The position numbers were made by a program, and so were the translations under genes. DNA of 63,733 nt, the filler included, from Cercozoa sp. M6MM (lineage: Eukaryota > Protista > Endomyxa: Ascetosporea), in assembly GCA_040357565.1 (NCBI GenBank). It is 9 parts of 9 records of this genome, joined end to end, with 100 filler letters (N's around TTAATTAATTAA, not from the genome) between each part and the next. Parts side by side here need not be neighbours in the genome. Positions count along the whole stretch, not along the records: positions 1 to 19,142 come from JBDODJ010000218.1; positions 19,243 to 25,519 come from JBDODJ010000760.1; positions 25,620 to 26,754 come from JBDODJ010002155.1; positions 26,855 to 30,420 come from JBDODJ010001399.1; positions 30,521 to 33,856 come from JBDODJ010001497.1; positions 33,957 to 39,958 come from JBDODJ010000806.1; positions 40,059 to 44,340 come from JBDODJ010001182.1; 2 more parts are not named here. One strand, written 5' to 3'. The notes under the pieces were generated by a model. That model did no database searches and had not been told where the DNA came from. It was given only the letters and a program-made list of their open reading frames with translations. Every line of letters starts with the position of its first letter. Position 1 is the first letter of the stretch. Positions 105 to 41,461 of this stretch are shown here, one piece after another.

Positions 105-1639
105 GAATCACAAGGGCAACAGTCGTACAGATCATGAGTCCGTACGGCAGATTGAACTGCGGACGCGGCACGTTGATTCCACGGCACACACGCGCCTACC
201 CAGGGGACAAAGGCGAGGGGATAAAGGGGGGTAAAAGAGGGTCAGGGATGGGAGTTAAGCTATACCATAAAGTCCCAGAACGGCACGGGTTCGTTGTTGG
301 TCACGATGAAGACCTGGCCGTTGACACCTGCATCCGGGTAACGAGGGGTAAAGAGGGGGGTAAATAGGGGGTTAAAGGGTGGGGTAAACTACACTTGTCG
401 CCAGCGAGCAGCGCATTGGCGGCCAGCAAATGCCCATAGGCGACGTTGCCAACGAAAGTGAAATCCGCGAGGTTGCACGCGTCGCCCAGCATCATGCGTG
501 TCTTGTTCTTTGCGCCTGTTACGCACACACAGGCAACACATTCGCGCGGAAGACACAGAAACCAACCAGTCAACTAGTCAGTTGGTCAGTCAGCACGACT
601 CACCAGTCTCAATCACGCGCGGGAAAAAATGCGGATCGTGCGGACCGAAAATTCCGCGCGGACGCACCACGGCGGCCATCACTTGTTCTTCTGCACTCAG
701 GGGGTTAATGGGGAGAGTTTAAACAAGGTAAAGTTGTGTCGCTCGACCGTACCAGTGGCAGCTTCGATCACGAGTTGTTCCTGCTTGAGCTTGCTCTTCT
801 CGTAGGCACCGACGCACACCTGGAAAAATCACGCTTTCAACAACTAAAGGAAAGAAAGGCAAGCAAAGGAAGCAAATGAAGGAAGCAAGTTAAGGAAGCA
901 GAGAAAGCAACGAAAGCAAGCCAAGAAAGCAACCTTTGGCGCCGGCGTGTGCTCATCGGCGTTGCTGCAGACCGACGTGTTGGCGGCATCGTCAATCACA
1001 CTGGCCGACGACGTGCACACCAGCGTGGCCTTGTTCTCCTTGCATGCTTCGATCACCAGCTTCGTTCCCTCGACGTTCACCAGCATCAGAATGCGCTCGC
1101 TCGCCTACCCACACCAAGCTTTGCAATACCGCAAGCCACAACAAAACAGAAAACTAAAGCGCTGAGCAGAGCGTACATGAGTCGGAGAAGGCGAAGCGAC
1201 GTGGAACACGACATCACAGCCTGCGACTGCGTTGAACACGTCCGTTTTGTTCGTCAAGTCACCCTGTCACCAGCAGAAACACTCATTACCGCAACGAGCA
1301 AGTAAAAGAAAGGCTCATCGAATCACCTGCACGAACTCAACGCGCTCGTTGTACTCAGTAACTCGCAGATCGATCACACGGACAAACGAAGCACCCGCCT
1401 GCAGCAGCTGCTCCACGATGTGCCGACCGACGAAGCCTGACGCACAAACCAATCAGAGTTGCAAAAAAATGGCGCGCTTTCGACGTGGTCAGAGCGCAGA
1501 TCTGACTCTGAAAACTCTGGGAAAACTAGGTTAATCAGAAGGCACTACCGCAACCGCCGGTGACCAGACAGCGCTTGCCACGCAGTTCGCTCAGCGAAGC
1601 CAGTCGCTCATTCAATCGCGCCACAGGAGAATCACTCAT
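105..1639 (-). CDS. Sterol-4-alpha-carboxylate 3-dehydrogenase (NSDHL/ERG26-like 3-beta-HSD), spliced; 3' end runs off the window
   Basis: Spliced exons give MSDSPVARL..CLVTGGCG/FVGRHIVEQLL (Rossmann TGGxGxxG), VNVEGTKLVIEACK, TSSASV, YEKSKLKQE, VRPRGIFGPHD, DFTFVGNVAYGHLLAA. Confidence 0.85.
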
Positions 1640-1825
1640 CTGCCTATGAAATTGTGTTAGACACGCTGTGGATACGCCAGACAGCACGATCGTGGAAAGC
1701 GACTGGTTTGACTGTCGGCTCGAGGTCCGACTCTGGCTCAGTGCTTCTGGTTGTTGGTTCGGCAGGTGCGTTTGTTGCATTATCGTACGCCTAATTGTGC
1801 TACTGCTGGAGGAAGGTGGTTACAG

Positions 1826-39849: not shown

Positions 39850-40097
39850 ATACGTGGCTGCAAGAATAAAACACACTTCGGTAAGTCACACACACACACA
39901 CACACACACACACACACACACACACACACACGAACACACACAAACACACACACAAAACNNNNNNNNNNNNNNNNNNNNNNNNNNNNNNNNNNNNNNNNNN
40001 NNTTAATTAATTAANNNNNNNNNNNNNNNNNNNNNNNNNNNNNNNNNNNNNNNNNNNNTGTGTGTGTGTGTGTGTGTGTGTGTGTGTGTGTGTGTGT

Positions 40098-41461
40098 GTG
40101 TGTGTTGTGTGTGTGTAGGAGTGCAAGGTACGAGGCCGAGATGCCAAGCTCGCCACGTTCCTCCTCCAGGTCGACCGGAGCACCCGGAGCTCGCCGCGAC
40201 GGTTCCGACGGATGAGCACCCTCGTCGTCGCGCATCTGATCCGACGGCTTCATCGGCTACAGCACACTCATATTTCAGCCAGTATGTCACAAGGGGAGAA
40301 AAGGTCAAACCTCTCCGCGCGGAAGCGCCGCGACATCGAAGCCGCTCATGGCGTTGTTGACGGTGGCGGCATTGGTGGCCACGTTGCTGATCTGACGGAA
40401 CTCGATCGTGCGACCGCAGATCTCCATGCCCTCCAGCTCACGGCGACACACCTGTGTGTGGGGGGGGGGGGGTAAGGGTCAAGGGAGGAGGTGGGGTAGG
40501 GGGTAAAACCTTGGCCTCGCCAGCACGACAGAACTGCACTTCGACCTCGCCGCAGAAGTCCTGCTCACCGTCGTCGCCATGTTGCTGCGTCTTGTAGGTG
40601 AAGTCCTCCAGGTCGCCGAACGCAGCGAACAGCGGCTTGATCTCGTCGGGCGAGAAGCCCGAGTAGAAACCGCACGCCACCAGACGCAGGGGCATGTTGT
40701 CTTGCCTGGTGAGAGGGGAGGGGGGTAAAGGGGTAGGGGGGTAAGGGGGTAAGAAAGCAAATACTTGGCCCTCTCGAACTCTTCGCCTTCGACACTCTGC
40801 GTCGCCTGCACCGTCACCGGGATGCCCGCAAGCTTGTGTCCCGTGAAAGCGATCGCGACCGGCACGGCATCGATATCGTGGAACTCCACGTAACCCAGCG
40901 AGCGCGACTTGTTTCTGCATTAGCAAAGCTTTAAATTTCACAAGTATTCAAAGCGAAAGCTAAGATTTCGAAATTGTCTCAAGATCAAAAGCGAAGAGCT
41001 TACGTGGCATGGTCGCGCAGAATGTGCACATCGCGCACCTTGCCAGCCTGTAAAGAAAGAAAAGCACGAGTGAAAGGAAAGCACGTACAAAGCGAAAGCT
41101 ACCTGCGAGAAGAACTTGAAGACTTGCTTCTCGTTGAGCTTGGGACTGAAGTTCGAAATGAACACTGTCAGCGACTGTCGCTGCGCGCGAGTCAGTCGCG
41201 GACTGAAACGCCAAGCTTTTAGAAACACAGCAATGACAGCAAAATCATAAAATGAAAACTACCTCGGACTGCGATGACGGTGTCTGCTGCTACTGCGGTC
41301 GCGGCTGCGGCGACGACGCGAGCGCGATCTGCGTCTGCAGAGAAAAAACGCTGGTCGATTGACGCAGATAATAGAACTCAAAAAACGCACCGGCGACTAC
41401 GGCTGCGGCGACGGTCGCGGCTGCGACTGCGCCGACGGTAGCTTCTGTCGTACTCCGCCAT
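40098..41461 (-). CDS. RBM39: RBM39/CAPER-like splicing factor (RS domain plus RRMs), 5' fragment
   Basis: MAEYDRSYRRRSRSRD.., TVFISNF, FFSQ|AGKVRDVHILRD, SRSLGYVEF, TGHKLAGIPVTVQATQ, second RRM LFAAFGDLE. Confidence 0.8.

Follow-up and report, generated by a model that had tools for sequence, protein, structure and literature searches.

Motifs that overwrite parts of a proteome have been described from bacteria, and the function of one much-repeated sequence, the highly iterated palindrome HIP1 of cyanobacteria, has stayed open for three decades. HIP sites are described as conserved between related genomes, periodic at 10-90 kb and served by a cognate DNA methyltransferase (PMC5861425, PMC4390886). 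HIP1 has been proposed as a chromosome-structure signal (PMC5861425), and a ratchet of methylase plus repair has been modelled for cyanobacterial HIPs (PMC4390886). Here we describe the 10-bp palindrome TCCGCGCGGA in DNA of M6MM, the marine rhizarian amoeba Lemnamoeba sinaloensis, which is haploid and has a 27-Mb genome of six chromosomes with 53% GC (PMC13746701). The stretch analysed, called the window below, consists of nine M6MM contigs joined by N spacers (about 63 kb; 63,733 nt with the spacers). The palindrome is in vast excess there, and the excess is a property of the DNA: strand-symmetric, independent of reading frame, built around a graded, gapped consensus, and without preference between coding and non-coding sequence.

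The sequence-only reading of this DNA had likened the palindrome to HIP1, and as far as behaviour goes the likeness stands. Both are GC-rich palindromes, the 160-290-fold excess in the amoeba falling within the 15-300-fold of HIP1 (PMC5861425, PMC4390886). HIP1 and its alternates are likewise enriched in every reading frame and outside coding DNA (2, 2 and 3 coding copies by frame and 7 non-coding copies in the amoeba), and their one-off copies, those with a single mismatch, deviate mainly at the ends. The amoeba motif differs in its length (10 bp plus a gapped flank, against 5-8 bp), in having no GATC core, in its density (~240 per Mb against ~500-2,500 per Mb; PMC4390886) and in its setting, a eukaryotic nucleus with introns. 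The window's 8-bp palindromes with five or more copies do not include the HIP1 sequence itself, GCGATCGC. The amoeba motif behaves like HIP1, but its sequence and its density place it outside the HIP1 family.

DNA uptake sequences, which are not palindromes, offer a second comparison. In Haemophilus, Actinobacillus and Neisseria, such motifs accumulate in coding DNA and raise the peptides they encode about 2-fold, mostly at poorly conserved residues (PMC2817400); the corresponding figure for the amoeba is about 3-fold, from a small sample. They serve natural competence in bacteria, whereas no uptake system is known for the amoeba. Among eukaryotes, the GC-rich loop-anchor motif of ctenophores, bound by CTEP1/2, and its placozoan counterpart are, like TCCGCGCGGA, lineage-specific, CpG-containing and present in thousands of copies, and the placozoan motif is tied to the end of a DNA transposon, within a Mutator terminal inverted repeat (TIR). 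Those animal motifs mark promoters and enhancers and have identified binders, whereas the binder in the amoeba is only predicted (PMC12221973).

The main texts of both genome papers (PMC11069148, PMC13746701) contain neither "palindrom" nor "methyl". The motif's 8-bp core and "palindrom" are also absent from the supplements searched for the 2026 paper, and no DNA methylase term is listed in the subset of the 2024 supplements that was searched. No eukaryotic highly iterated palindrome appears among the literature matches listed, in a search that most subscription journals fall outside. Paired-motif scans of sequence collections with few eukaryotes (14 viral, at least 120 metagenome and at least 120 prokaryote loci) gave, among the matches listed, no locus with more than 3 copies in unrelated flanks; the richest loci were tandem repeats. 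The excess is real, far beyond chance and codon usage, and gives the highly iterated palindrome pattern a eukaryotic form. New features are the end-biased, clustered one-off copies, the flanking G (CN-TCCGCGCGGA-NG) and a high-copy TIR element that carries the motif near one end.

Abundance and location of the palindrome

The window holds 15 exact copies of TCCGCGCGGA, one per 4.2 kb (239 per Mb), which makes it first among all 10-mers, as well as 11 one-mismatch and 37 two-mismatch copies. Markov models of orders 0-4 trained on the window predict 0.05-0.09 exact copies; the resulting excess is 160-290-fold, and it persists at orders 5 (20-fold) and 6 (3.8-fold), where the palindrome trains its own null. 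As a class, 10-bp palindromes are not enriched (92, of which 15 are TCCGCGCGGA, against 71 expected), and 99 composition-matched palindromes have 9 copies altogether. Seven of the nine contigs carry the motif. Its unevenness across contigs is not significant (P 0.07), and 14 of the 15 copies lie in the first 40 kb, a split picked after the fact. Extrapolation to the genome gives about 6,500 copies (95% range 3,600-10,600).

By location, 7 copies are coding, 4 lie in inferred GT-AG introns, 3 are intergenic, and one, at 34265, is either coding or in the 3' untranslated region (UTR). The coding share (7 or 8 of 15) fits the coding share of the DNA (P 0.18-0.80); coding DNA makes up 56.3% of the M6MM draft genome (PMC11069148). 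The eight exonic copies named in the sequence-only reading all start exactly where it had placed them, and its claim that they are coding, in all three frames, is borne out for seven of them (3 PRG, 2 SAR, 2 RAD), the eighth being the ambiguous 34265.

P-R-G is encoded at 653-662 in an NSDHL-like exon (604-690, gene on the minus strand), at 14056-14065 (Y-P-R-G) in the SQLE exon 13930-14113 (minus strand), upstream of the FAD-binding motif, and at 40314-40323 (L-P-R-G) in an RBM39-like gene on the minus strand, 3 nt before a splice donor. The two S-A-R copies are 14222-14231 (S-A-R-T), in what splice-phase continuity suggests is the first coding exon of SQLE (14179-14264), and 26250-26259 (S-A-R-I), in SLC33A1 on the plus strand, with one-off copies at 26528 and 26584. 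R-A-D is encoded at 31457-31466 (V-R-A-D, minus strand), in an EF-hand gene, within its acidic tract, and at 35499-35508 (F-R-A-D) in SURF1 (minus strand). Public gene models give the coding status of 653 and 26250 (P0121, P0122). NSDHL-like, SQLE, SLC33A1 and RBM39-like were identified by match, the EF-hand assignment scores below the Pfam cut-off and the SURF1 match is weak (E 0.1). Of the seven coding copies, five are in exons that match nothing in Pfam, as short exons often do, or fall outside the FAD-binding match. At 31445-31467 in the EF-hand gene, a 12-nt tandem duplication (VRADVRAD) sets an exact and a two-mismatch copy side by side.

The ambiguous copy, 34265-34274, is in the last SURF1 exon. 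With a splice donor at 34458 it falls 16 nt past the stop at 34290, in the 3' UTR; with a donor at 34469 it encodes F-R-A-E. The two donors have donor scores of 2.2 and 1.78 and codon scores of 2.4 and 5.2, respectively.

The intronic copies are 2307-2316 in the inferred intron 2279-2339 of a plus-strand gene (GT at 2279, AG at 2338-2339; read-through meets an in-frame TAG), 23185-23194 in inferred intron 23149-23210, with one-off copies close by at 22885 and 23728, 35179-35188 in the inferred SURF1 intron 35170-35367, with one-off copies at 34863 and 35063, and 36754-36763 in inferred intron 36715-36771 of a plus-strand gene. The intergenic copies are 11502-11511 and 39417-39426, both within copies of the TIR element described below, and 51768-51777, intergenic in our own models.

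Codon usage does not account for the excess

Gene models came from a self-trained hidden Markov model (HMM) with hand correction, using the DNA alone. Codon and peptide tests covered 192 exons with 7,455 codons: 4 exons set by hand and all HMM exons of at least 45 nt, a cut-off adopted because the HMM over-splices. Thirteen tetrapeptides in this set are compatible with the motif, and 7 of them are encoded by exactly TCCGCGCGGA, far above the 0.29 that codon usage predicts, so these peptides do not use the motif codons merely at codon-usage frequency. In synonymous resampling, 2,000 runs under each of two nulls yielded at most 3 motif uses, and the 99 composition-matched palindromes were used exactly at 4 of 277 compatible sites. 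As the sequence-only reading had proposed, codon or amino-acid bias is refuted within the window as the cause of the excess.

The compatible peptides are themselves in excess, 13 against 3.8 under residue shuffling and against 4.0 +/- 2.0 under a dipeptide Markov null, in which none of 2,000 runs reached 13; no control palindrome attained 13 either. Once the 7 motif-encoded peptides are removed, the other 6 are ordinary (P 0.22).

As sources of the excess, bias in codons or amino acids, a general tendency to form palindromes and an assembly artefact are all hardly tenable. The codons CCG, CGC and GCG are common here, but TCC, CGG and GGA are rare (0.10, 0.09 and 0.12), and 7 copies lie outside coding sequence. 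Only 2 of the 15 copies have self-complementary flanks, a count on which perfecting of palindromes by template switching was rejected. As to assembly, contig ends in sequencing run X1, which may have supplied this DNA (34276, 35188 and 36754), coincide with 3 of the 5 motif copies in 34000-39850, among the 8 pieces listed of about 26,000. This coincidence may come from reads joined chimerically at the palindrome or from a genuine rearrangement. Against an artefact, and against cutting or recombination at the motif, one X1 contig spans the copies at 14056 and 14222 without joint or variant, and X1 contigs show no difference at the motif copies they cover.

Probable effects on protein sequence

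The palindrome has likely changed host proteins, as comparison with homologs suggests. At 653 the amoeba NSDHL-like protein reads RPRGIFGP where the human protein has RPHGIFGP (PDB 6jkg), as had been claimed. In the 148 of 149 homologs that align at this residue (187), His occurs 68 times, Ser 34, Ala 26 and Arg once; among the 30 closest homologs, His occurs 23 times and Arg never. The alignment around this copy is free of indels, and one substitution in a His codon would be enough to produce the motif. The claim that the DNA motif overrides protein sequence gains from this rarity of Arg and from the peptide excess; we infer the override rather than observe it, because no close relative is available to order the changes.

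In SLC33A1 the motif encodes Ser-Ala-Arg where 119 homologs mostly have Cys-Asn-Lys (Ala in 9 of 119, Asn in 84 of 119), in an alignment that is unstable there. About 3 extra residues relative to these homologs directly follow the motif (26259-26270), and their DNA resembles a partial motif repeat. Column conservation is moderate at the NSDHL and SLC33A1 copies. The SLC33A1 one-off copy at 26584 is not informative, its columns being variable. In glutamate dehydrogenase, a one-off copy at 48888-48897 places Ala (F-R-A-Q) where Val (F-R-V-Q) stands in the 5 alignments shown of 39 PDB matches, a weak comparison as several of these are variants of one protein.

Anatomy of the site and its possible recognition

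One-off copies are 5-7-fold enriched (11 against 1.6-2.1 expected), and 9 of the 11 differ at the outer two positions. They gather near exact copies, with 7 of 11 within 600 bp of one against 24% expected (P 0.005). At the second base beyond the palindrome, 18 of 28 flanks have a G (P 3e-5, one repeat-borne copy dropped). Coding copies show this preference as often as non-coding ones (9 of 14 each), and it holds on either side with respect to the direction of transcription (7 of 12, 8 of 12); the site is therefore better written CN-TCCGCGCGGA-NG. Control copies from bacteria and viruses have G and C at similar frequencies at +2 (0.40 and 0.37). A gapped, symmetric flank preference is as would be expected of a dimer on double-stranded DNA. 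The arrangement TCCG-N2-CGGA occurs 16 times, 15 of them with a central CG, and other spacer lengths occur 0-2 times each, so that the half-site spacer is not free. Spaced half-sites of the Zn2Cys6-like kind were rejected on this fixed spacer.

We consider it an evenly balanced question whether TCCGCGCGGA is the putative site of a symmetric DNA-binding protein that organises chromosomes, maintained under weak selection. Such a binder would likely be abundant and two-fold symmetric, organising chromosomes rather than regulating single genes. The predicted protein would recognise CN-TCCGCGCGGA-NG. New sites would arise through point substitution and would be retained by weak selection where the encoded protein tolerates change, so that synonymous codons, and sometimes residues such as the His-to-Arg change in NSDHL, would be rewritten. 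Candidate jobs include loop, boundary, condensin or cohesin loading, or origin marking. We favour a role in chromosome organisation by analogy both with HIP1, for which a structural function has been put forward (PMC5861425), and with the ctenophore and placozoan loop-anchor motifs (PMC12221973).

The main rival, which we regard as doubtful, is a mutational ratchet in which a methyltransferase would mark the CGCG core and methyl-directed repair would fix nearby mutations towards the palindrome, leaving the sites functionless. Deviation at the ends with the core spared is the very pattern behind the ratchet model for HIPs (PMC4390886). The indifference to gene structure, the residue override and the clustering of one-off copies would also fit a local repair bias, and TCCGCGCGGA contains three CpGs. 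On the other side, CpG is not depleted overall (observed-to-expected ratio 1.11; introns 0.78, coding sequence 1.24), its autocorrelation is flat, so that nucleosome-linker periodicity was rejected, and the model does not obviously yield a gapped preference at the second base beyond the palindrome. Eukaryotic mismatch repair is not known to choose its strand by methylation.

It is quite improbable that the motif is simply a transcription-factor site, or an element acting in RNA or splicing, that exons happen to tolerate. BEN-domain proteins provide a lead: the sites of the animal factors Insensitive and BANP are reportedly 10-bp palindromes, one sharing the outer three bases on each side (TCC...GGA) and the other the CGCG core. 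These factors are said to act at promoters and insulators, unlike the amoeba motif, which has a single copy of 15 (51768) in a plausible position upstream of a gene. Several copies are near splice sites, which is expected because introns in the window are about 63 nt long. The strand symmetry of the flank preference speaks against this reading, as does folding: TCCGCGCGGA forms no stable single-strand hairpin (minimum free energy 0, DNA parameters).

A transposable element carrying the motif

A short element at 11171-11533 has 10-bp inverted ends with one mismatch, a 4-bp target duplication and the termini TGT...ACA, and the motif ends 22 nt inside its right end. With its TIRs, target-site duplication and many copies it shows the features of non-autonomous TIR (class II) elements, a solo long terminal repeat (LTR) being the alternative. 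A second copy occupies about 39405-39839, its left end decayed and its start approximate. Both copies hold the motif near one end and lie just 3' of a gene. Over the second copy, the summed contig depth is 20,000-63,000 against about 380-520 on unique DNA, which is not a copy number. We take a Ginger-like element or a solo LTR to be the possible identities. Ten unclassified TIR families have been described in L. sinaloensis (PMC13746701).

These elements raise the possibility that transposons seeded the motif, which would then be a subterminal, transposase-binding sequence, the scattered copies being remnants or footprints, or a site the host later adopted. In favour are the 2 of 15 copies near the end of an element with a 4-bp duplication and very high summed depth, five flanks reading TA (two of them the element's own), the roughly 3 extra SLC33A1 residues adjoining the motif, and the precedent of the placozoan loop-anchor motif within Mutator TIRs (PMC12221973). 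We nonetheless judge it unlikely, as self-comparison of the window finds no element sequence around the other 13 copies, the NSDHL copy lies in an alignment without indels, and the depth suggests on the order of 100 element copies against the roughly 6,500 extrapolated motif copies.

Weighing the chromosomal-site reading

More ambitiously, M6MM may represent a eukaryotic nucleus with a highly iterated palindrome of its own, thousands of 14-bp symmetric sites for a lineage-specific chromosome protein, possibly adopted from a transposon end, maintained firmly enough to rewrite the proteome in the way of HIP1 and the bacterial uptake sequences; this fuller proposal is tentative, and we lean against it.

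Several points weigh against a selected chromosomal site. The window cannot separate selection from biased repair, and end-biased one-off copies are equally predicted by a repair ratchet (PMC4390886). Exact copies are not clustered among themselves (4 of 15 within 600 bp of another, P 0.54) and have no obvious spacing. Eleven or 12 of the 15 lie in exons or introns, whereas animal loop-anchor motifs lie at promoters and enhancers. As for residue override, the columns compared tolerate variation, and one NSDHL homolog (P0292) likewise has Arg. The flank and clustering tests were picked after seeing the data, 5 of 7 coding assignments come from our own gene models, and 63 kb were sampled from a genome of 27 Mb, in a species without a close described relative (PMC13746701).

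The amoeba is a culturable, haploid eukaryote with a 27-Mb chromosome-level assembly and existing long reads, which would make the question of selection versus repair directly testable. If TCCGCGCGGA does act as proposed, some amino-acid changes in a phylogenetically important lineage would be driven by a DNA signal, which would matter for codon models and phylogenomics.

Neighbouring genes and minor observations

The scans of other genomes also met the motif in unrelated settings. Metagenome contig L029 has five copies at 4341-5176 within a larger palindrome that precedes a parA-like gene, with flanks that differ from those of the amoeba; this array is likely, by resemblance, a plasmid partition site. 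In the phage-like contigs L003, L004, L006, L010 and L036, the motif falls within 27-nt tandem repeats unrelated to the dispersed pattern.

Among other features of the window, an RPL7 exon spans 10362-10988 and has 100% identity to a public M6MM protein, and Rfam returned no matches. An exon at 14379-14465, upstream of the SQLE start, is apparently 5' UTR and contains a short upstream frame (ATG at 14465, stop after 11 codons). The HMM places an intron-rich gene at 20980-24490, presumably one for a fused glutamine amidotransferase/PabB protein, which it resembles. Introns are rich in TAA[G]n-like and (CA)n repeats (for example 31199-31283, 33625-33740 and 35700-35750), both of which have been described for this species (PMC13746701). 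At 60480-61400, an SKP1-like gene is followed by a partial duplicate of one of its exon regions (60769-60847 against 61308-61388, 78% identical).

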